DNA of 64,000 nucleotides from Candidatus Dojkabacteria bacterium (GTDB lineage: Bacteria; Patescibacteriota; Dojkabacteria; B142; OLB20), in assembly GCA_035444565.1 (NCBI GenBank), contig DAOMOX010000003.1, positions 95,488 through 159,487 on the forward strand. The letters are read 5' to 3'. The position numbers were made by a program, and so were the translations under genes. Below, piece after piece: positions 2,458 to 53,114 of this stretch. Numbering within the stretch: the stretch's first letter is position 1; each line of letters starts with the position of its first letter. The notes under the pieces were generated by a model. That model did not search any database. It had not been told where the DNA came from and worked only from the letters and a program-made list of their open reading frames with translations.

Positions 2458-2601
2458 GGAACTATTAATTTCAGGGATTTCCCGCTATAATCGATGTACG
2501 TTTTCCATGATTAATGGTCTACTAACGTATATATTGCCAAGATGGCGGAATTCCTCTTCGCCCAGAATAGTCGGGCTACGAGGAACAAGTTGGTAAATAT
2601 A

Positions 2602-12864: not shown

Positions 12865-13962
12865 ATGGATGATTTCGACAAGTATAATAAGGAAATAGTA
12901 AGCCAGATGCCTTTAATAGAGGATTTCTTTTATGACCTTATAAATAATAATTATTCAGGGAAAACAGTATCTAACTATCAAAGAGATTTATTAGTTTTTG
13001 CGAGTTTTCTATATTCACAGAAATTAAAATTTAAAGAAATCGGGAAATTAGATTTAATTAAATACAAAGACTATTTACGTAATGGGAAATATTTAAAAGA
13101 TTTAAAATTCCTCTATAATAACGAAAATGTCACCGATGATCGTGAAAATCCACTCCCTGAAACGCAACACAAAGAATCGAGCTCTAAGGCATCTAGAAGG
13201 CTTTCTATGTATCAAGGTCGACTTGGAAGTCGCAGTGTAAATCGTATGTTATCAGCATTAAGGAGTTATTTTAGATTTTTGACAGATGCGGATGAAAAAG
13301 TTCCAATTCCTGCAGATGCGATAAAATTAATTAAAACTGAAAAAGTCGTTTCAAATGTTGCTGACTTAGATGAATTAATTTCTTTAATTGAATCTCCAGA
13401 AAATTTTGAAAAGAAAAAAAATGTTCGTTACAGAAACCGTGCAATGTTGGAATTATTATTTTCAACTGGTATGAGAATTTCTGAACTTATAAATTTGAAT
13501 CTTGAAGATTTGAAACTTGATGAGTCTAAAAAAGTTATACAAGATGACAGAATTTTCATCACTGGTAAAGGAAAAAAGCAAAGATTTGTTTATCTCACAG
13601 AACGTGCAAAACATTATCTGGAAAGGTATCTGATGACTCGTGATGACGAATATAAGGCCTTGTTTATACCTTATAGAGGATCTCGGCTAGGTACTGAAAA
13701 TCCTTATGCAGTAAGAGTTTCGGTGAATTATTTACAATATAAAATTAAACAATACAGAACTCGTCTTGGTATAAATATTCCTACTTCCGCGCACAGTCTT
13801 AGGCACGGTTTTGCTACTTATTTATCCGAAAATGGTGCAAATCCGGCTTCAATTCAACGACTTCTTGGTCATGAATCATTACAAACGACAAGCCGTTACG
13901 TTCATACGAGCGACAAGGTCGCACAAAAATCTCATAAAGAATTCCATCCATTAAAAGAGTAG
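12865..13962 (+). CDS. Xer-type tyrosine site-specific recombinase with an extended N-terminal domain
   Basis: C-terminal box HSLRHGFAT...LLGHESLQTTSRYVH with catalytic R, H-x-x-R and Y. Confidence 0.8.
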   Translation: MDDFDKYNKEIVSQMPLIEDFFYDLINNNYSGKTVSNYQRDLLVFASFLYSQKLKFKEIGKLDLIKYKDYLRNGKYLKDLKFLYNNENVTDDRENPLPETQHKESSSKASRRLSMYQGRLGSRSVNRMLSALRSYFRFLTDADEKVPIPADAIKLIKTEKVVSNVADLDELISLIESPENFEKKKNVRYRNRAMLELLFSTGMRISELINLNLEDLKLDESKKVIQDDRIFITGKGKKQRFVYLTERAKHYLERYLMTRDDEYKALFIPYRGSRLGTENPYAVRVSVNYLQYKIKQYRTRLGINIPTSAHSLRHGFATYLSENGANPASIQRLLGHESLQTTSRYVHTSDKVAQKSHKEFHPLKE

Positions 13963-24522: not shown

Positions 24523-24957
24523 ATGAAAGCAAAAAAGGCTTTTACGTTACTTGAATTGCTAGTCGCTATGGCAATTATTGCCGTTCTAATTGCCTTGGCA
24601 ATTTTCGGTATTATTCAAGTACAAAGAAATTCCAGAGAAACTCAAAGAAGAAAGGCAGCCGAGGATATAAATATAGGTATACAAGACTATTATACAAACT
24701 ATGGTGAATATCCTGATGTATTAACTTTTGGAACAATTTCTACTGGTGTAGGAGTTGAAGTTTCAGATTCGACTGGTGCAAATGTGATTGAAGTACCTCT
24801 AAAAAATGCCGCAGAACCAGGTGCTACAACAACAGCACAAGCTACAAAATGGTATTTTTCCAACACTGCACCAGGGTACAAATTGAATTATTGTAATGAG
24901 CGAGATGTTGAGATATTTGCAGGTACTGATGAAACATCAGGTATGACTTGTCCTTAA
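24523..24957 (+). CDS. Type IV pilin (candidate major pilin)
   Basis: Class III signal KKAFTLLELLVAMAIIAVL and a C-terminal Cys pair. Confidence 0.75.
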   Translation: MKAKKAFTLLELLVAMAIIAVLIALAIFGIIQVQRNSRETQRRKAAEDINIGIQDYYTNYGEYPDVLTFGTISTGVGVEVSDSTGANVIEVPLKNAAEPGATTTAQATKWYFSNTAPGYKLNYCNERDVEIFAGTDETSGMTCP

Positions 24958-24971
24958 TCAAAAATAAATAA

Positions 24972-25454
24972 ATGATAACCAAGGCTGAAACTAAAAAATC
25001 ATCAAAATCACTCGCGATCTCTCCTCGGAGATTGCGAGTGTACTTGGTTTTCATTGGAGTATTATTTTTAGGCTTATTGATTCTCGGATTATCTTTAAAC
25101 CGTTATGCGCTTTGGCAAAAAGGTGTTAGAGAGAATCAGAGAGTTGAGATGATGAATAAAATCGTTACTGAACTTGAAAAATTCAAAGCTGAGAATGAAG
25201 ATTATCCTGAAGCAGTATTTTTTAAAACTGACTCAGTTTTAATTTGTCCGAAAATAGATTGTTTAATTAGTACAGAATTAGAATTAAAAGGATCAACGAA
25301 GGGTGCCTCAGACCTTCAGCCCAAAACTGATAAAGAATTCACAAGTTACAAATATGAATTGAGCGACAATACTTTTAAACTAGCATTTTGTGACGAAGAT
25401 GGTCAGGTTAATAATTTCGGAGAAGCATCTTATGATGAAATGATTTGTAAATGA
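24972..25454 (+). CDS. Membrane-anchored cysteine-rich protein, possibly pilus-associated
   Basis: Single N-terminal TM, no prepilin motif, six Cys. Confidence 0.35.
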   Translation: MITKAETKKSSKSLAISPRRLRVYLVFIGVLFLGLLILGLSLNRYALWQKGVRENQRVEMMNKIVTELEKFKAENEDYPEAVFFKTDSVLICPKIDCLISTELELKGSTKGASDLQPKTDKEFTSYKYELSDNTFKLAFCDEDGQVNNFGEASYDEMICK

Positions 25455-26287
25455 ACTTAATAATGGAAATAATATTAATTCTTCAGATTTTTGTTTTAGG
25501 TCTGGTGTGGGGTAGTTTCCTCAATATGGCAGTATATCGAGTTAAGCATAATCTGAGTTTTTCGGGGAGATCTTTCTGTGATCATACAAAAGAGAAACTT
25601 ACCTGGAAGGATTTAATCCCCCTACTCTCTTATTTCTTTTACAAAGGTAGGTGTCGACACTGTAAAAAGAAATTACCAGCAATTTATCCTATTGTAGAGT
25701 TTACGACAGGTTTAGTTTTTGTTTTAGGTTTTTGGTACTTATGGAATAATTTTCTAGATAAGCCATTATTTGGATTAAATTTATTTATCATCGTTATTTA
25801 CTCCTTGTTCTTCCTTTTTTTCGCAGTTTATGATTATCTCTATTGGGAAGTAAATGTAAAAGCTATCAAGTTAGCATTAGTTATTTCTGCGCTATTTTCG
25901 TTAACAGCAATTGTACTTTCAGATAAACAACTTGTCGTCTCAGGTATAAGCGGATATTTAGGTGCGCTTATTGCAGGATTAATTATTTACTTAATTGTAA
26001 AATTTACGAAAGGCTCTGGTATGGGTGAGGGAGATATATATTTAATGGCTTTTGCTGGTTTTGCAGTAGGTATAGAAGGTCTTATTCCTCTGTTCTTGAT
26101 AAGTTCTGTAAGTGGTTCGATTATAGGAATTATTAAAGCGTTGAGAGTGGGTAAACTTCATGGCGTGCAAATACAGTTTGTTCCTTTCATCAGTTTTGCA
26201 GCTCTAGCTGTTTTATTCTGGAAGGATTCAATTTTGAAATTACTTTCACTGGATGAATTTTTCTTACTGATTTCTGAATATTTATGA
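25451..26287 (+). CDS. pilD: Prepilin peptidase PilD (A24 family)
   Basis: N-terminal CxxC...CxxC zinc motif and a polytopic membrane domain. Confidence 0.8.
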   Translation: MNLIMEIILILQIFVLGLVWGSFLNMAVYRVKHNLSFSGRSFCDHTKEKLTWKDLIPLLSYFFYKGRCRHCKKKLPAIYPIVEFTTGLVFVLGFWYLWNNFLDKPLFGLNLFIIVIYSLFFLFFAVYDYLYWEVNVKAIKLALVISALFSLTAIVLSDKQLVVSGISGYLGALIAGLIIYLIVKFTKGSGMGEGDIYLMAFAGFAVGIEGLIPLFLISSVSGSIIGIIKALRVGKLHGVQIQFVPFISFAALAVLFWKDSILKLLSLDEFFLLISEYL

Positions 26288-26832
26288 TACGGATAAAAAA
26301 GGGGTATACATTATTAGAGATTTTGGTTGTGATGGCAATTATAGCAATACTTCTATCAATGTTAATACAAGTTATGGCTAATTTCAGAAGAACTATCGAG
26401 TTGCAACAAGCGAGTGACTTGTTAACTTCAAGTGTAAATGAAACAAAAAACTATGCGGCAAATAATGTATTACCTGATGGCATAGTAATTGATGATGATA
26501 GCATTTATGCGTATCAATTAGTTCCTCAGTCGAACGATATTGAACGAAGAGTTTGCCAAAAAATTGGAAATTCAATATTTTGGGATTGCTCGATTTCAAC
26601 AAAAGTCGATAATTTTATTAATCTTGATAATAATAATGTTTTACTTAACACTGTTGGATGCGATAGTATGATTTTAATTAATTTGATAAGTGACTGGCAG
26701 GTTGAAAACAGCGGCACTTATAGCGATTCAATCTGTGAGATTGAACTTTCTCATAAAACAGATCCAGAAGTCTTTAGAAGGTTTATATTTGATGGAGCAA
26801 AAAATACTTTTGAAGTAAAATATGGAAATTAA
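26284..26832 (+). CDS. Minor pilin / pseudopilin
   Basis: Prepilin N-terminus KKGYTLLEILVVMAIIAIL. Confidence 0.6.
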   Translation: MIRIKKGYTLLEILVVMAIIAILLSMLIQVMANFRRTIELQQASDLLTSSVNETKNYAANNVLPDGIVIDDDSIYAYQLVPQSNDIERRVCQKIGNSIFWDCSISTKVDNFINLDNNNVLLNTVGCDSMILINLISDWQVENSGTYSDSICEIELSHKTDPEVFRRFIFDGAKNTFEVKYGN

Positions 26833-27337
26833 AAAACTAAACATAAAAGCATTTGGATTATTGGAATCAATAATTGCTATCGGTGTTTTTGGGGTTACCA
26901 TAGTAGTGGGTTTATCTTTGATTGTGAAGTCATTAGCGATTATAAAAGATAACCAAGTTGCAGATCAGGCATCAGCCTTCGTTTATTCATCTTTAGAATA
27001 TGCTCGCTCACCAATTGTAAAGCCTGAAACTCTTACGAAGGGGTTATTTTATAAGGTGAATACAGGTTTGCAGGGGCAAGTTACTGGTATCACTTCGACA
27101 TCTTCTGCTTCCGAGATCGAGGCAAACTCTTCATGTTCATCTTCATCTGAGTTTTATGTTGATATTGATGGTCCAGACTCTAACGGCACATTTTGTAACC
27201 AAATCACTGTAGATTATGTTAATCCGCTCGACCCTACAAATAGTGATTATATTATCAGGTCTATAGGAGTCTATAAGATCAAAGATGGCTATAAACTCAC
27301 CGAATCAATCGGTTTTAAAAACAGAACTCAATTATGA
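26822..27337 (+). CDS. Minor pilin-like protein
   Basis: N-terminus KAFGLLESIIAIGVFGV, PilV-like. Confidence 0.5.
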   Translation: MEIKKLNIKAFGLLESIIAIGVFGVTIVVGLSLIVKSLAIIKDNQVADQASAFVYSSLEYARSPIVKPETLTKGLFYKVNTGLQGQVTGITSTSSASEIEANSSCSSSSEFYVDIDGPDSNGTFCNQITVDYVNPLDPTNSDYIIRSIGVYKIKDGYKLTESIGFKNRTQL

Positions 27338-27936
27338 TTATGACTAAGACTATTAAAAATAAGAAAGGCTTTTCGCTTCTTGAAATGTTAGTGACTTTAG
27401 TGGTTTTTGCTGTTCTTATGACAATGATAGTTCAAGTATTAATCCTTAGTATCAATGCAGGGAGAAGAATCGCTGGTAGATCGAAAGTTAGAGGTGATTT
27501 ATCAGAAATTGCGGTTATGATTAGACGAGATTTCCGCAATTCAAGCAGAATTGATCAAACCCTTTGTGGTGAAAGTATCAGTTTCGTTAACCCTGATGGT
27601 ACAAACGCCGTTTCATCTGCTCCCGCTTGCTTTTTCAATTTGACAGGAAATGACTATGCTTGGGTATATGGGACTAATGTAACAGAATGCCCGGAGAACA
27701 AGTTGTGTAAACTAAAGCAGAATCCATCGGGGGTTTACGAACTCTATTATCAATCTTCTGACATTCTGAAGTTCGATCCTATCGGCACTCGTTTTGAACT
27801 TACACTCTATCAACAAACAGAAAAAACCACTCAAGGTATTTTGTTAGCCTCACTTACTGCAAATGTTTCTGATGATGTGAATATTGAGGTCTCCACGCAG
27901 TATCGTCAAATTAGTGTATTTACTAGGAACTTTTAA
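27334..27936 (+). CDS. Minor pilin / pseudopilin
   Basis: N-terminus KKGFSLLEMLVTLVVFAVL. Confidence 0.65.
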   Translation: MIMTKTIKNKKGFSLLEMLVTLVVFAVLMTMIVQVLILSINAGRRIAGRSKVRGDLSEIAVMIRRDFRNSSRIDQTLCGESISFVNPDGTNAVSSAPACFFNLTGNDYAWVYGTNVTECPENKLCKLKQNPSGVYELYYQSSDILKFDPIGTRFELTLYQQTEKTTQGILLASLTANVSDDVNIEVSTQYRQISVFTRNF

Positions 27937-30947: not shown

Positions 30948-31979
30948 ATGAAACTGCCTGAATTCTTTGGTTTAGATATTGGGAACCACTCCCTTAAAAT
31001 TGCACAGGTTAAGTACCTGGGAACCGATACTGCACAACTTCTTAAATTAGCCAGAGCTGATATAGTTGGTGGAGTTGTCAACAACACTGATTTACCAAAC
31101 TTAGCTAAAGAAATTAAGAACCTCAAAGAAACTGCTGGAATCAATACCAAAAAAGTTGTTATTGCCCTACCCGAGTCTTCAATATTTTCTCGACTTATAT
31201 TGTTACCTGATGTTGACGAGTCAAAACTCGAACAAGCAATATATTACGAAGCAAAGCAATATCTTCCTGTCACAATAGATGAAGTTCAACTTGAATGGGT
31301 ACAAGTCAGTAAAAGCCAACGTGATGGAAAAACATTTGTCCAATGGCTTATTGTTGCAGCCCCGAAAAAAGTTGTTGCAAAATATATGGAAGTTATGGAT
31401 TTAGCGGGTTTAGAAGTAATTGCTGTCGAAACTGAAACAATAGCCACTGCAAGGGCCTATACCTATAATACGCATTTCAATGAAGGCGTTTTAGTAATGG
31501 ATTTCGGAGGAACAAATACAGATATTTCTGTGATAATGGGAAAAAATGTAATTTTTTCACAAAGCATCGGAACTGGCTCTGATGTATTAACAAAAGCACT
31601 TATGTCCGAGTTTAATCTAGATATTCTCCAGGCTGAACAATATAAAAGGACTTATGGTTTGCTTCGCGACCAAGCAGAAGGAAAAATTGCTGGCGCTTTG
31701 GAACCAATGATGAAGATTATAACGAATGAAATAAATAAGACTATCAACTATTTCCGTGAACATCTTCGAGAAAACACTCCAAAACAAATCTACATCGTAG
31801 GAGACGGCGCAAATCTTCCTGGATTAGCACAGTACCTTACACAAGTTATGGGAATTCCTGCGAGTGTCGTTGACCCTGTGATGTCTCTGAAAGTTGATAA
31901 CAGGATGAAAGCTGAAATAAGTCAAATAAGCACAACTGGATTCTCTGTTGCTTTAGGTTTAGCTCTGAAAACCGAATAA
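30948..31979 (+). CDS. pilM: Type IV pilus assembly protein PilM (actin-like ATPase)
   Basis: FGLDIGNHSLKIAQV N-terminus, FtsA/actin fold. Confidence 0.8.
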   Translation: MKLPEFFGLDIGNHSLKIAQVKYLGTDTAQLLKLARADIVGGVVNNTDLPNLAKEIKNLKETAGINTKKVVIALPESSIFSRLILLPDVDESKLEQAIYYEAKQYLPVTIDEVQLEWVQVSKSQRDGKTFVQWLIVAAPKKVVAKYMEVMDLAGLEVIAVETETIATARAYTYNTHFNEGVLVMDFGGTNTDISVIMGKNVIFSQSIGTGSDVLTKALMSEFNLDILQAEQYKRTYGLLRDQAEGKIAGALEPMMKIITNEINKTINYFREHLRENTPKQIYIVGDGANLPGLAQYLTQVMGIPASVVDPVMSLKVDNRMKAEISQISTTGFSVALGLALKTE

Positions 31980-47651: not shown

Positions 47652-48168
47652 ATATTTGTAAGAATTTGATGAGTGAAGTATGTACTAAACAATTTTTATA
47701 AGGAATGGCTGGCTTTCTCGGACTTAAGCTCTAAGAATAATGAGCATCTTCGTTTATAGTGATCATAAATTAGGCAAAATGAAGATTATGTAAAACATAC
47801 TCTAGTCATTTTGCACTCTCGAGTCTTGTTTCTATTCGACTTCACTTCGTTTGTCTCATAGACAAGATCGGAGCAGCGCAAGGCTGTTCCCGACAACGGT
47901 AAAGTTCGTCTTCACTTCGTTCGACTCACTAATTGTTTCGTAAAGGCGCAGCAAGCTGCATCCTCATTCTACTTTATTAAACGGAGGCAAAAAGAATATT
48001 TTGTAAAACAAAATCTAATCTTTTTGCACTCTCGCCAGTGTATTTACTCGTAAACTCGTAAACACTCGCGGAGAGCATGGAACTTCGCTCGAACTTTTTT
48101 TCTTAAGTATCCGCAGATAAAGATACAAATACCTAATGTCTCTTTCAATTATATTAAAGGAAAACACA

Positions 48169-49014
48169 TTATTCAAAATTTTTAATATCTCTCCATATTT
48201 GTAAATAACTCTGTAAATCCTCAGGGTGATGCTTGCGACATGAAGATATCCTTTTAAATAGAGAAATCTTAAGAAAATCTGATTTCCGATCTAAGTTAAT
48301 TGGGAAGATTTTTAGAAACCTTGATAGACATGTATCGTAGTTTTTAGGATTAATTTGCTCAGGAGTAGAGCAAAAAGCAAATAAGAGATCATATAAAGGG
48401 TGACCTATTATTGGATCGGGATCAATTATCCCTAGAGGTTTATCAAACGTGTAGAAGATATTATGAAATCCGAAATCACCATGAATCAGATACTTCGTTG
48501 AGAAGTAATCATGAGAGTATCTTATTTTTATCAGGTCAACCAGTGAATTTAATTCGTCCACTTGAAAAATATCCGAGATATATTTATATGCTTCCTGCGA
48601 TTGCTTAATAATGAAGTCAGCAAAAGACTTAGCTGTAAGAAATCCACTAAGAAACCCAAATCTTTCAGTTTGGGAAATTATTTTATACTTGCTTAAGAAC
48701 GATTCTGTAAGAATCTCTAATATTTCTATCTTGCTGTAGTTTTCACGCAATTTCTTTAAATCTAGATAATCGATTATAAGCTCGTCTGGTTTTGAATATA
48801 TTAATCTAGGTAGGTAAGGTAATTCTGAGTATTCTTTGTAGAAAAACGCTTGTGGAGAGATCGAGTTAACAGCACCTGATTTATATACATATTTTCTGTT
48901 TTTTGACGTTTTTAGGAGAAATATATTATCGCCAGACCCACCAGATAATCTCCTTGAAGAAGTGATCTCACAATCTAATATTAGTTCAATCTCCTGTACT
49001 TTTTTATGATTCAT
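48169..49014 (-). CDS. Aminoglycoside/choline-kinase-like phosphotransferase (APH fold)
   Basis: LIHGDFGFHNI catalytic loop and IIDPD. Confidence 0.65.
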   Translation of the reverse strand: MNHKKVQEIELILDCEITSSRRLSGGSGDNIFLLKTSKNRKYVYKSGAVNSISPQAFFYKEYSELPYLPRLIYSKPDELIIDYLDLKKLRENYSKIEILEILTESFLSKYKIISQTERFGFLSGFLTAKSFADFIIKQSQEAYKYISDIFQVDELNSLVDLIKIRYSHDYFSTKYLIHGDFGFHNIFYTFDKPLGIIDPDPIIGHPLYDLLFAFCSTPEQINPKNYDTCLSRFLKIFPINLDRKSDFLKISLFKRISSCRKHHPEDLQSYLQIWRDIKNFE

Positions 49015-49141
49015 ATTACATGTAAATTTTCACTCGAACATATGAATTATGACTTGAATAAAGCGTTAGTTTAAGCTTAAAAACCTACCGTTCTATCCTC
49101 CCTAAAATTTTAGTGCTTGCATATAAGCCTTATCGAAGATT

Positions 49142-49226
49142 CGGAGAGGACAGGATTCGAACCTGCGGTCCCTTGCGGAACATTGGTTTTCAAGACCAAC
49201 TCATTAGACCACTCTGACACCTCTCC
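49142..49226 (-). tRNA. tRNA-Ser (anticodon UGA), CCA not encoded
   Basis: Minus strand reads GGAGAGG...CUUGAAA...long variable arm...GGUUCGAAUCC...CCUCUCC-G. Confidence 0.85.
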
Positions 49227-49536
49227 ATATTAAATTGTAACACTTAGGTTTTTCCCTCTTCGCTATGCTACGAGGGACTAATTCGCGTAAGTTCGCCTTA
49301 TGGCTCACTAACCGCTCATTGAGCAAGACCAGCTCATTAGACTTCATCCCGCCTTGGCGGGACAAGCTCTGACACCTCTCCATATTAAATTGTAACACTT
49401 AGGTTTTTCCCTCTTCGCTATGCTACGAGGGACTAATTCGCGTAAGTTCGCCTTATGGCTCACTAACCGCTCATTGAGCAAGACCAGCTCATTAGACTTC
49501 ATCCCGCCTTGGCGGGACAAGCTCTGACACCTCTCC
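49227..49536. repeat. Two identical 155-bp tandem units immediately 5' of tRNA-Ser, each carrying a tRNA-Ser 5'-half-like segment
   Basis: Direct reading: 49227-49381 equals 49382-49536. ORF-track ORFs 49204..49398 and 49344..49538 are translation echoes of the repeat. Confidence 0.85.
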
Positions 49537-49880
49537 ATATTAAATTGTAATTGATTGGTTTTTCCCCTACGGGGATCAGTTCAGGTAAACTCTCCCCTCT
49601 TCTGACTTTGTCAGCAGATGGGATTGTTAACCCTTCACAGTCTAGACCAGCTCAAAATGCTCTGCTTGCCCTTCGGAGCCTTGGCAAAGAAGGGACACCT
49701 CTCCATTTTTTCTACGAAATTGGGAATTTCTATTAAATTGTAATACCTTGGTTTTTCCCCTATGGGGATTAATTCGCATAAGCTCGCACTACGTTTCGCT
49801 TGTGCTTGCTAACTCCTTAGTTATAAGACCAACACTATAAACATCATCCTACACTTACTTGAAGTGTAGGACATTCTCTT
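49537..49880. repeat. Two further diverged copies of the same unit
   Basis: Unit boundaries ATTAAATTGTAA, GGTTTTTCCCC-TAY-GGGG hairpin, and CACCTCTCCAT end recur at 49537 and 49731. Confidence 0.7.
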
Positions 49881-50050
49881 CCCGCAAATTCTTATGGATA
49901 AATTATATCAGATATATTCTTATATTCTAATTTTCCTAAACTTCTCTCCAATTCATTTGTTTTAATATGTTGTAATCTTTATTATTTATTTTAAAAAGAG
50001 AGGTAATTTGTATATACAATATAAATAATTAGAAAAAGAATTATTGGTGA

Positions 50051-51109
50051 TTATTCTGATAATAGAAATTCAGTAAGAATTGCTTGATACTTTCTAAGGC
50101 TTGATATGCTAACCCATTCCTTATCAGTTCCGATTCCACCCCCAACAGGACCAAATTCTACTCCTGCGCAATTTACTTCTGTGAAATGTCTTGCATCAGA
50201 TGAACCATTTGCACCATAAAATTTTACAGAGTTTTTTGTGAAATTCGATACAATTCTTTGTAGTTTTATTAAATTAGGATCTGTCTCTTTTACATATAAA
50301 CTGGGTTCATTTACTACGATTTCAATTTCAAAAGTATTATCTAACAATGACTTAATATTATCTAAAATTGTTTCGCTATCTTCGGGTATATAACGGATAT
50401 CTAAATCTATAGTGCATTTATCTGGGATTTTATTGAAACTCTCGTTTGTGGTAGAAATATTACTTAAATTCAAAGTAGATTGCCAAGAATCTTTTAGGGG
50501 AATGGGAAAAGTCTTTTCAAGCTGAGTCAATAAATTATGCATCTTCCAAATTGCGTTTTTCCCTCGCCATGGATATGCTCCATGAGCTGTTTTTCCCTTT
50601 GTTGTTATTCTCAGCCAGATAATACCTTTAGCTTTATTCACTATATTAAATCCTGTAGATTCACCTGCAATAACGAAATTACTTCTTACCCCTTCTTGTA
50701 TTTGGTACTTGGTTCCATCAAATCCACCAGTTTCTTCATCTGTAACTAACTGTAGTCCAAGTGGATATTTTACTTTTTTAGCAACATTGTTAAAAACAGA
50801 AACAAGTGAGGCGACGTTACCCTTCATGTCCATTGCCCCGACACCATATAATCTATCACCTGTAATTACGGGAGTAAATTGTTTTTCTTTCCCAGGTATA
50901 ATATCAAGATGACCATTTAAAATATACTTGAAAATTTTAGGTCGTTTACTTCTGTTATACACTAAAACACTATTTTTCCCGTTTGATTTAAAATTCTCAA
51001 TAGTATAATCAGTTAGAGAGCTCAAACATAAATCTAATGCTTCATTTAAAGCCTTTGTATTTCCTGGAATAGTTTTGATTCTAATTAATTTTTTAGTTAG
51101 ATTAAGCAT
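50051..51109 (-). CDS. M20-family metallopeptidase/deacylase (ArgE/DapE-like). Start taken at MLNLTKK.
   Basis: GHLDIIPG...GVGAMDMKGNVAS metal-binding motifs. Confidence 0.7.
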   Translation of the reverse strand: MLNLTKKLIRIKTIPGNTKALNEALDLCLSSLTDYTIENFKSNGKNSVLVYNRSKRPKIFKYILNGHLDIIPGKEKQFTPVITGDRLYGVGAMDMKGNVASLVSVFNNVAKKVKYPLGLQLVTDEETGGFDGTKYQIQEGVRSNFVIAGESTGFNIVNKAKGIIWLRITTKGKTAHGAYPWRGKNAIWKMHNLLTQLEKTFPIPLKDSWQSTLNLSNISTTNESFNKIPDKCTIDLDIRYIPEDSETILDNIKSLLDNTFEIEIVVNEPSLYVKETDPNLIKLQRIVSNFTKNSVKFYGANGSSDARHFTEVNCAGVEFGPVGGGIGTDKEWVSISSLRKYQAILTEFLLSE

Positions 51110-53114
51110 CGCTAGATAGGTTAGGATAAATTGGAAGCCAGTGAGTGAGTCCATTACCATGAACATTATTCTTTTTCCCTTCCCTAGAACCTGTTGGGAT
51201 CGCGGATCTGAATCCACCCATAAACCGTGGTAAACCACCCACAAGAGAAAAGAAGTTTCTGTCAATAACAATTGTTGGAACACCGTTTATAATTGCCTCG
51301 GGATTCTTTAATTCGGGTTGAACGACATAACATCCTCTTTCTTCGATGTCTCTTAATAATTCTCTTAAACCGTTTACTTTACGGAAATTTAAGGTGTGAT
51401 GACCGTAGGCTCCGTATGTACGTTTTAATGGTTTAAATCTCGTTCCTTTTTCTCCATTTTCTACTTCTGGAACATCGATACCTCTCAAAGCTAGATGGTG
51501 AGCATAAACTTCTGAAATTAGCATTCCACTCGGAGCAGTTTCAAGCAGTTGTTTAATTTGTTTTAATGATTGCGTACTTACATGATTGCTATCGTGTGTA
51601 AGAAGGTCCAATCCAAAAGCTTTAATTACACCATGCTTTAAATCTATTCCTAGCTTAGATAATTGTTTCATGCCTTGTTCACTAAAAACGCTTGAAATAG
51701 GTAATTGATCAAAAAGTTGTAATAAGAGGTCTCTTTCAAGATCTTCATATAGATGGATCGCAAAATTTTCGTCAGCATCCTGCAAATCTGTGTTTGATCG
51801 CGATACATCTTTAAATCCTCTACCTGATAAATCAAAAACTTGCTGTTTTAGTATAGGTGAATAATAATTAGCACTAGGTAAAAATTTCTTAATTTGTTGG
51901 AGAACCACCTCTCTAAGAAATCTTTGAGAATATATTTTGTTTAAATCTTCCGATCCATTAATTTGCAATCCCATCCCGATTGTCTCCATATATTCCTTTG
52001 TATCATTAATCATTTGGGATAAATCCATATCAGGTCCGTCTATATTTAATGTTAAAGAATACATTTTTATATACCTTCTCATATCTGCATCATTTAGTAA
52101 AGATTCCGGGGCTTCGGATGTTGGATCTTTTAGTTTGCTTATAGGATCAGAGGATCTAACTACAAATACATAATCACTATGATTACCGTTTTCTTGTCTA
52201 TATGTTTGTAATTCTTGTGGACTAAAAACCTTATCGAATCCTGTTAACCTATATACCTCATCATCTGGTAATGGTTCATCCGATGTTTTTCCAAATTCAC
52301 TTCCCTTAATTGCGTCGTATTTAGGATCTGTGACTGCAACAATAGCTATTTTTTTCCCACTAATCGTACGCATATGTTCAAGTGTTTCCCTAAACTGAGA
52401 TTCAAAGAAACTGGGCTCACCATTGGGACTTGGAAACATTTTTGATAAAAGTTGATACATTGCAAGTGAATTTTCTAATTCGAAAATTCCTCCACGTATT
52501 ATCTCTTTTACATCGTTAGGAGTCATAGATTCTGCTAGTTCAAGAAACGATTGTGGTAATGCTGTCATATCAATCTGAACCATCATATTAATAGGATTAC
52601 CTTCAGAATCAATTATAAACTGATAATCAGTTTCCCATTCTCGATTCTTTGCTACTAAGTCTCTAAATGCTTTATTATATTCATCATATAATTCAACCAA
52701 TGCAGTGATTACAATATTTGGATAGAATGTGGGATTATCAGGTAAGGTAACAAATGGACCTGCAGTAGACTCTATAAAGTGTTGACTTCGAACAACAGGT
52801 CCTCCCTCTCTGTAATTTATTCCAGGTTTTTGTGGTGGTGATGCAATTGCACCTTGTACGTAGGGATGGTTTGTGTCCAATTCACCGCGATGAGCTCCTA
52901 AAACAATTAATTCTGTAGGAGTGTCAGGAAAAGTATAACCAAGAATAATTACAGGTGTATTAATGATTTGAACTTCAGCACCATTACCATTTGTTTGTAG
53001 TATTCGTGCACGAACTTCATGACCTTCTAGAGAAAGGTGATGATGGTGTGAGGTATGATTAGTTGAACTATCAAAAGGTAATACCGGTCCATTAACATTT
53101 TCATATTGCGTCAT
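51102..53114 (-). CDS. Large (~670 aa) protein of unknown function. Start taken at MTQYENV, just 3' of the terminator.
   Basis: ORF only; no family recognised with confidence. Confidence 0.4.
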   Translation of the reverse strand: MTQYENVNGPVLPFDSSTNHTSHHHHLSLEGHEVRARILQTNGNGAEVQIINTPVIILGYTFPDTPTELIVLGAHRGELDTNHPYVQGAIASPPQKPGINYREGGPVVRSQHFIESTAGPFVTLPDNPTFYPNIVITALVELYDEYNKAFRDLVAKNREWETDYQFIIDSEGNPINMMVQIDMTALPQSFLELAESMTPNDVKEIIRGGIFELENSLAMYQLLSKMFPSPNGEPSFFESQFRETLEHMRTISGKKIAIVAVTDPKYDAIKGSEFGKTSDEPLPDDEVYRLTGFDKVFSPQELQTYRQENGNHSDYVFVVRSSDPISKLKDPTSEAPESLLNDADMRRYIKMYSLTLNIDGPDMDLSQMINDTKEYMETIGMGLQINGSEDLNKIYSQRFLREVVLQQIKKFLPSANYYSPILKQQVFDLSGRGFKDVSRSNTDLQDADENFAIHLYEDLERDLLLQLFDQLPISSVFSEQGMKQLSKLGIDLKHGVIKAFGLDLLTHDSNHVSTQSLKQIKQLLETAPSGMLISEVYAHHLALRGIDVPEVENGEKGTRFKPLKRTYGAYGHHTLNFRKVNGLRELLRDIEERGCYVVQPELKNPEAIINGVPTIVIDRNFFSLVGGLPRFMGGFRSAIPTGSREGKKNNVHGNGLTHWLPIYPNLSSDA

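Follow-up and report, generated by a model that had tools for sequence, protein, structure and literature searches.

Genes for transfer RNA (tRNA) are a textbook target of mobile DNA, which almost always enters at the 3' end of the gene and by way of elements that carry an integrase. Direct repeats of part of a tRNA beside the intact gene are the hallmark of such integrated elements: in the tycheposons of Prochlorococcus serial integrations leave multiple partial copies (10.1101/2020.12.28.424599), and in Caldiarchaeum subterraneum a 5' fragment of tRNA-Thr is split from its gene by a 1.8-kb element that encodes a recombinase (PMC3293823). Here we describe a 66-bp segment directly upstream of a tRNA-Leu(CAA) gene, made up of a partial 5' copy of the tRNA, an imperfect palindrome and a short tail, in a stretch of 64,000 nt from a Candidatus Dojkabacteria bacterium (assembly GCA_035444565.1, contig DAOMOX010000003.1, positions 95,488-159,487, forward strand; hereafter the window). 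Comparison with related genomes shows that the segment is a lineage-specific insertion with clean empty sites; rather than a conserved leader, it probably represents a small mobile or recombinational element that targets tRNA genes.

The known kinds nearest to it are tRNA-associated insertion or recombination footprints and small palindromic elements. With the scars of attachment (att) sites the locus shares a partial tRNA copy beside the intact gene, copies stacked at one tRNA (an array at tRNA-Ser) and presence or absence between genomes, and with the Caldiarchaeum case it shares the upstream position of the 5' fragment. It differs from such scars in that 40 nt without a recombinase lie between the repeats, that the repeat reaches into the native flank and that tRNA sequence resumes after the hairpin in the pseudo-tRNA units; moreover, most bacterial cases duplicate the 3' part of the tRNA, whereas here it is the 5' part.

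Among palindromic elements, repetitive extragenic palindromic (REP) sequences and bacterial interspersed mosaic elements (BIMEs) with their RAYT transposases, and the palindrome-associated transposable elements (PATEs) of IS200/IS605, are short imperfect palindromes oriented by their mismatches, recognised as folded single-stranded DNA and conserved in structure over sequence; they occur in tens to hundreds of dispersed intergenic copies and make no long target duplication. Compared with these families from general knowledge, our palindrome is alike in being imperfect, in carrying mismatches that give it an orientation (41 versus 16 bits by strand) and in occurring both ways round, and it matches the REP format of a 20-40 nt imperfect palindrome with orienting mismatches. 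It differs in its confinement to tRNA 5' regions in the ~154 kb searched (the window plus 90 kb from relatives, where the many dispersed intergenic copies typical of REPs were not found), in its 26-bp repeat and in that no HUH-type transposase was seen in the window. Integration of the Cas1-Cas2 type makes repeat-spacer-repeat units, which the 26-bp duplicated target bracketing ~40 bp near an AT-rich region with a period of 66 bp resembles in geometry only, whereas here a conserved hairpin family recurs across loci and lineages in place of a unique spacer and no cas genes or array were seen. GC-rich palindromes reportedly flank tRNA genes in Neurospora mitochondria, where they have been discussed as signals (Yin et al. 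1981, cited in PMC4478555), and they have the link to tRNA genes in common with our hairpin. The mitochondrial GC clusters, among them the GC-rich palindromic cluster GC42 of yeast (PMC4478555), are comparable as GC-rich palindromes in an AT-rich genome with presence/absence polymorphism, a constrained stem, variable loops and no encoded enzyme, whereas they reside in a eukaryotic organelle and have no tRNA stub, the yeast elements having a 2-nt target duplication and many copies.

A lineage-specific insertion upstream of tRNA-Leu(CAA)

The window has a GC content of 35% and encodes, among others, DnaB, elongation factor P (EF-P), an M16 peptidase, LspA, RluD, RuvABC and pilus genes; on the basis of this gene content and of EF-P homologues labelled Candidatus Dojkabacteria or WS6, its host would be a bacterium of the Candidate Phyla Radiation (CPR) related to Dojkabacteria. 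ARAGORN and Rfam identify two tRNA genes, an intact tRNA-Leu(CAA) at 2602-2685 on the + strand (60.3 bits with the Rfam tRNA model) and an intact tRNA-Ser(UGA) at 49141-49227 on the - strand (59.1 bits at 49142-49226). An exact copy of the first 17 nt of tRNA-Leu (GCCAAGATGGCGGAATT) stands at 2536-2552, and no further copy exists in the window when up to three mismatches are allowed. Next to this stub, on the + strand, lies a GC-rich imperfect palindrome of 31 nt (2553-2583), which reads CCTCTTCGC-CCAGAATAGTCGG-GCTACGAGG and can be written TT-CCTCTTCGCC-loop-GGCTACGAGG-AA with two conserved inner mismatches; it is followed by the spacer AACAAGTTGGTAAATATA. At 2585-2594 (+ strand) lies the right-end motif ACAAGTTGGT, a 10-mer common to the window and two related loci (L140/L141). 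A prior reading of the window from its letters alone (the sequence-only reading) had described the stub, the hairpin, the spacer, a TATAAT box at 2486-2491 and the intact gene from 2602, all of which we found as described.

The duplicated segment is longer than that reading had it: the first 17 nt are indeed copied, but the actual direct repeat spans 26 nt (2527-2552 versus 2593-2618, both + strand; 24/26 identical, 92%) and comprises 9 nt of native upstream flank plus tRNA-Leu positions 1-17. The flank portions, GTATATATT in the upstream and GTAAATATA in the downstream copy, are identical at 7/9 positions, a match with p ~0.004-0.01 at a fixed position in the window. The two copies bracket the 40 nt that hold the palindrome, giving a repeat period of 66 bp, and the upstream copy is contiguous with flank that is homologous to that of relatives.

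Orthologous tRNA-Leu loci were gathered via EF-P and homologues and via a tRNA-anchored metagenome scan, and were ranked by flank identity to the window over 2.2 kb. The scan, anchored on a 30-nt tRNA-Leu segment, returned 70 loci, 68 of them from other phyla because the anchor segment is widely conserved, and two from relatives (L287 and L330), both of which are empty sites. Three same-species assemblies from different samples carry the 66-bp segment (L003, L002 and L001, with flank identities of 100%, 96.1% and 95.9%) and six related lineages lack it (L330, 82.8%; L287, 81.2%; L136-139, 78.2%; L132, 78.0%; L145, 71.5%; L347/348, 70.6%), while L140/141 (72.8%) has a longer related element. 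At the empty loci the homologous upstream flank joins tRNA position 1 directly, leaving one clean gap of 66 columns in the alignment, and in the window the ancestral flank is adjoined by the stub rather than by the intact gene. Relatives thus lack exactly 66 bp, as the sequence-only reading had predicted for a mobile or recombinational element; the identical segment in all relatives, by which that reading would have recognised a conserved processing leader, was not seen. The tRNA-Leu sequence is identical in relatives without the insert, among them lineages whose flanks are only 78-83% identical. Within the window species the segment is fixed and diverges at about the background rate, the same-species copies differing from the window by one or two independent single-nucleotide polymorphisms (SNPs), one of which, in L002, falls uncompensated within a hairpin arm.

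The longer element of L140/L141 runs from native flank through CCAGGATGG, a T, the hairpin CCTTCTTCGC-TTAA-GCTACGAAGG, 47 nt, ACAAGTTGGT and 34 nt to the intact tRNA. Its stub CCAGGATGG corresponds to positions 2-10 of its own tRNA variant (the window counterpart being CCAAGATGG), and because each stub matches the resident tRNA variant, each lineage probably made its stub from its own resident sequence. Both elements have the hairpin core and the right-end 10-mer in common, with 47 nt of interior versus 1 nt in the window; the L140/L141 arms carry a compensated T/A insertion, but their two inner mismatches are those of the window copy. A history of two gains is about as parsimonious as a single old gain followed by one or two precise losses by way of the repeats. 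The tRNA-Leu of L140 is also flanked by an 11-nt direct repeat (ATTTATCTCTA, at ~2705-2735 and ~2870-2895), and ~180 nt of extra AT-rich sequence lie there between tRNA-Leu and EF-P, versus 29 nt in the window.

The TATAAT box at 2486-2491 (+ strand) belongs to a motif, TATAATCGAT, that does not vary among the seven loci aligned; in relatives it is found 27-45 nt ahead of the ancestral tRNA 5' end. Because this box is the likely native (predicted) -10 element of the tRNA-Leu promoter, the insert sits between the promoter box and the mature 5' end; its co-transcription as a tRNA leader, raised by the sequence-only reading, is plausible given the conservation of the box.

A covarying hairpin family at tRNA 5' regions

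Both 9-nt arms of the Leu hairpin recur at the tRNA-Ser locus (49255-49263/49267-49275 and 49410-49418/49422-49430), so the claim that the two loci have arms in common holds, and the pattern CTTCGC-N(1-20)-GCTACG occurs three times in the window versus 0.01 expected, for which reason the shared hairpin is not a product of chance. A family alignment (A3) of five hairpin copies served to build a covariance model, which was run with filters off. In the 9-pair structure 97.8% of cells are paired, versus 36-62% in slid controls; three of the nine pairs, all in the outer stem, carry compensatory changes, and just 2 of 500 shuffles scored as high in covariation. All five copies retain two inner mismatches (C/T opposite T/C, and T opposite C), and their loops measure 3-13 nt. 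As DNA the family hairpins fold at -3 to -9 kcal/mol, the strand with purine mismatches folding somewhat better (for the Leu hairpin, -7.8 kcal/mol on the + and -9.2 kcal/mol on the - strand).

The model scores the known copies at 36-42 bits (Leu hairpin, 38 bits, E 2e-7) and all else in the 64-kb window and the 90 kb of relatives at 16 bits or less, so that no hairpin copy was found outside tRNA 5' regions in this ~154 kb. The known contexts are tRNA-Leu(CAA) in two lineages and the pseudo-tRNA-Ser array, in each case joined to the 5' stub of a class-II tRNA. Of the earlier proposal of a dispersed element or a recombination site specific to tRNA 5' regions, the recurrence at tRNA 5' regions stands, while dispersal beyond them was not found in the sequence searched.

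Wider scans returned nothing of this kind. Searching a genome collection with CCTCTTCGC-N(1-20)-GCYACGAGG gave at least 119 matches, all at chance level and in unrelated, mostly GC-rich genomes, and was uninformative on the host; scans of viral collections for the hairpin core, for the hairpin plus AAGTTGG and for the promoter block of the Ser units gave chance matches in coding sequence or none. Rfam 15, even at permissive thresholds, recovered the tRNA family only. Three further candidates were tried and set aside: the hairpin arms and the ACAAGTTGGTAAAT tail as a decayed tRNA-Leu (acceptor 3' strand, spacer, 5' strand), for which local alignments to tRNA-Leu and tRNA-Ser were no better than shuffled; an integron attC site, as the 3' side GTTGGTA does not fit GTTRRRY and the 5' side has no RYYYAAC; and an intrinsic terminator, as no T-run follows the stem on either strand.

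Covariation of the stem, a position downstream of a conserved TATAAT box where the insert is probably transcribed, an RNase III gene in the window, and the discussion of GC-rich palindromes beside Neurospora mitochondrial tRNA genes as signals would all be compatible with a functional leader, that is, a hairpin selected as an RNA element of the tRNA precursor (a processing signal, an insulator or terminator, or a protein-binding site) with the stub as an incidental companion. However, six relatives with an identical tRNA do without the hairpin, and its orientation to the tRNA differs between copies, such that the RNA would present pyrimidine-pyrimidine mismatches in some and G-A mismatches in others; no U-tract follows the stem, no Rfam family matches it and the stems are too short for RNase III, and we consider this explanation improbable. 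Coincidence or an assembly artefact is hardly credible. Mis-assembly can make short repeats near tRNA genes and many short-read contigs break at tRNA-Leu, those of L005-L007, L133, L134, L143 and L346, from different samples, ending exactly at tRNA-Leu positions 16-18 (the L010/L012 contigs end within the tRNA-Ser variable arm), ends that are likely due to tRNA sequence common to co-occurring relatives. Yet the segment is found with independent SNPs in three other assemblies from different samples, related copies occur in L140/L141 and in L008/L011, and the arm pattern far exceeds its expected count. Taken together, the data exclude chance, an artefact of assembly and a conserved leader.

The tRNA-Ser array and its neighbourhood

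Upstream of tRNA-Ser(UGA), on the - strand, a tandem array of two identical 155-nt units and two older, diverged units reaches to ~49883. Units 1 and 2 (49228-49537; period 155, 2.2 copies, 100% match) each contain tRNA-Ser positions 1-15, a 25-nt hairpin that replaces the GG of the D-loop, tRNA positions ~18-36 and a unique tail; after the D-loop hairpin the tRNA-Ser sequence resumes, with 18/19 nt matching, up to the anticodon loop and then diverges. They end in an inverted family hairpin and then GGGAAAAACC-N6-TTACAATTTAATA just ahead of the next 5' end. In unit 1 this family hairpin, CCCTCTTCGC-TAT-GCTACGAGGG (49254-49276, + strand; identical copy at 49409-49431), is inverted relative to tRNA-Ser and scores 41.3 bits on the + versus 15.9 bits on the - strand, while the D-loop hairpin of the pseudo-tRNA, CTTGTCCCGCC-AAG-GCGGGATGAAG (49342-49366, - strand; identical copy at 49497-49521), is diverged and matches the model weakly (11.4 bits). 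Unit 3 (49538-49704, - strand) holds the best covariance-model match in the window, the family hairpin CCTTCTTTGC-CAAG-GCTCCGAAGG (49670-49693, - strand; found by fuzzy search; 42.4 bits, E 2e-8), whose arms are identical to those of the L140 hairpin at 18/20 positions. It directly follows an 11-nt tRNA-Ser stub (49694-49704) and has the orientation and layout seen at tRNA-Leu, reading GGAGAGGTGTC, CCTTCTTTGC-CAAG-GCTCCGAAGG, GCAAG and CAGAG in succession, with tRNA-like sequence resuming after the hairpin. Unit 4, the oldest (49705-49883, - strand), comprises a pseudo 5' end, a CAAG-loop hairpin, a short CCCC-ATA-GGGG hairpin and a promoter-like block. The sequence-only reading had seen one and the same layout at both tRNA genes; the copies it cited at tRNA-Ser are in fact inverted and lie ~85 nt from the partial tRNA copy, but the diverged copy in unit 3 is indeed arranged as at Leu.

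L008 has a single 155-nt unit, while the window and L011 have two, the array having grown by tandem duplication; in each unit a TGnTACAAT-like box is retained ~7 nt ahead of the 5' end. Two interpretations of the array were tried and dropped: alternative 5' halves of a split tRNA, the pseudo-units being without anticodon stem and 3' half, and an intron-containing, split or permuted tRNA gene, as ARAGORN and Rfam find two intact tRNAs only and the pseudo-units lose tRNA similarity after the anticodon loop. In the same species, positions 1-55 of L009 (GCA_035444845.1, contig DAOMPP010000013.1) start with ...ACTGCTAACGAAGTGTCTC and have the anticodon loop GCT, this 5' part being joined to an identical 3' part and downstream flank of the tRNA-Ser(UGA) locus; the assembly may have fused Ser isoacceptor genes into a chimera here, or else recombination has genuinely replaced the 5' part.

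The 17-nt stub and the stacked Ser stubs are what an att scar would look like. On that account an integrative element with a tyrosine or serine recombinase, carrying its own promoter and a tRNA 5' part, recombined in the D-arm and took the place of the resident 5' part; almost the whole element subsequently disappeared, so that attL (stub and hairpin) and attR remained, and repeated rounds built the Ser array, much as serial integrations do in tycheposons. The genes that flank the Ser array are in keeping with an integration hot spot: besides identical copies, the best matches of the kinase-like gene (48169-49014) and of the M20 peptidase gene (50051-51283) stay at 52% and 64%, without close orthologues although near relatives have long contigs, and synteny ends at the array in the nearest M20 relative, which suggests that the block around tRNA-Ser is a variable, accessory or horizontally acquired region. 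Near the tRNA-Ser of one relative there are also a large serine recombinase and a 3' fragment of tRNA-Ser. On the other hand, the repeat includes native flank (7/9, p <= 0.01), which would not be expected of a copy brought in by an element; both in the Ser units and at Leu the tRNA sequence continues beyond the hairpin, for which an insertion into the D-arm is a better fit than an attL junction; neither a recombinase gene nor a fragment of one is present between the repeats, nor any integrase gene or remnant beside them; an attP-like junction was not found in viral collections, and BLAST searches of phages and plasmids with the Ser units and the Leu segment found no match. Retention of the hairpin and of the ACAAGTTGGT end in two lineages would moreover call for parallel deletions. 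We therefore regard an att scar as unlikely.

It is doubtful that the locus arose without any dedicated element, through illegitimate or homology-facilitated recombination, either by DNA uptake anchored on the conserved tRNA or by palindrome-stimulated local slippage, although either route could duplicate a tRNA 5' end and bring in an upstream hairpin common before tRNA genes in some lineages. A tRNA-Leu that stays identical where the flanks are only 78-83% identical is an ideal homology anchor, and the Ser array changes through tandem duplication; the two tRNAs concerned come from families with several isoacceptors, and in L009 a GCT 5' part is joined to the 3' part and flank of tRNA-Ser(UGA), a junction that may, however, be an assembly chimera at a repeat. 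DNA uptake would be consistent with the type IV pilus components of the window: four neighbouring genes (24531-27410) share a 51-nt 5' segment at 61-71% identity, which probably encodes pilin-like N-termini, and together with pilM (30948-31979) they look like a type IV pilus or competence-type cluster. This account leaves unexplained the co-occurrence of stub and hairpin in at least three contexts with neither in six empty relatives, the conserved ends around a variable interior, and the covarying stem with its retained mismatches.

At the loci of the 52-64% kinase-like and M20 homologues in relatives, no comparable tRNA-Ser array was found. Between the HAD hydrolase gene and the kinase-like gene (minus-strand reading), a non-coding stretch of ~515 nt (47652-48168) contains a 50-nt AT-rich long inverted repeat (GGCAAAA...TTTTGCC; copies at 47772-47821 and 47985-48034, 86% identical) and short repeats such as ACGAAGTGAAG(A/T)CGAA and two copies of TTTACGAG; it may represent an unannotated RNA or another repeat family. 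In a distant relative (L266, 2585-2900 and 5484-6840; L267, 2154-3479), a partial T-arm-like copy (GGTTCGAATCTTGTCAAGC) lies ~200 nt downstream of tRNA-Ser(CGA), with large serine recombinase genes a few kb away, which looks like a classical 3'-end integration site.

Candidate mechanism and what it would mean

For the 66-bp segment, a small palindromic insertion element specific for tRNA 5' ends, which duplicated its target and left the gene intact, is the explanation we favour, with about an even chance of being correct. Such an element, with functional ends, is argued for by ends that are shared around a variable interior, by a covarying stem with conserved mismatches and by the restriction of the family to tRNA 5' regions. 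It would consist of ~40 bp, namely the GC-rich imperfect palindrome and a short tail ending in ACAAGTTGG, and is bracketed by a 26-bp duplication of the resident target, which reaches from -9 into the D-loop as far as tRNA position 17; through this duplication an intact gene would have been regenerated downstream, with a 17-nt stub left upstream. As a member of a small palindromic family in Dojkabacteria-like CPR bacteria, the hairpin, with its paired outer stem and conserved inner mismatches, would be the part recognised during insertion, probably as folded DNA, since the varying loop length speaks for recognition of a folded hairpin rather than of a duplex site with fixed spacer. Movement may have occurred by staggered-cut insertion or by site-specific recombination. 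In the present species the insert would be a vertically inherited passenger, probably transcribed as an extra leader and removed by 5' processing.

Several points weigh against this reading. To our knowledge, a target duplication of 26 bp is far longer than any made by known transposases. No transposase or integrase is linked to the 40-nt insert, whose flanking genes (DnaB, two small conserved open reading frames and EF-P) are syntenic housekeeping genes in relatives, and Pfam scans of the genes around both tRNA loci revealed no mobile-element recombinase. The sole recombinase found in the window is a tyrosine recombinase (12865-13962) with a SAM-like N-terminal domain and Xer-type architecture, downstream of ruvCAB, and its counterpart in an insert-free relative is placed likewise; no HUH-type (RAYT-like Y1) transposase was seen among the proteins of the window that were scanned. 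The hairpins are only moderately stable (-3 to -9 kcal/mol), the family hairpin occurs in both orientations at the Ser locus, and the Ser array can grow by plain unequal crossing-over. One old insertion with one or two precise losses through the direct repeats can also explain the window species and L140, and the survey covers two tRNA genes of this genome, both of which have the feature.

The element also departs from established classes of miniature element. A miniature inverted-repeat transposable element (MITE) was rejected, as the left end forms a palindrome on its own and has no inverted repeat in the right end ACAAGTTGG, the repeat on either side measures 26 bp instead of 2-10 bp and copies are few; an IS200/IS605-derived PATE was likewise rejected, given one hairpin instead of two, the 26-bp direct repeat and left junctions that differ between copies (AATT, GGT, GTC). 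We would speculate further, as a rather long shot, that a miniature CPR mobile element of a kind not described before targets the D-loop of class-II tRNAs and heals its target by a ~26-bp 5' duplication, with hairpin-tagged stubs accumulating into pseudo-tRNA arrays. Judging by their TGnTACAAT-like boxes, the Ser pseudo-tRNA arrays might themselves be transcribed and act as decoy RNAs or landing pads.

In this streamlined, uncultured CPR lineage hardly any mobile elements are known to us, and the one described here would be a tiny, enzyme-less palindromic element at a tRNA 5' end, with a regenerated gene and a stub. Contig breaks at tRNA-Leu and tRNA-Ser mean that such loci are often lost from assemblies. 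Should the segment be no more than a scar of recombination, it would be a commonplace trace of genome plasticity. If it is a true tRNA-5'-specific element, it would represent a new way for essential tRNA loci to tolerate insertions, would explain both the pseudo-tRNA arrays and the assembly breaks at tRNA genes, and would provide a marker of strain-level variation.

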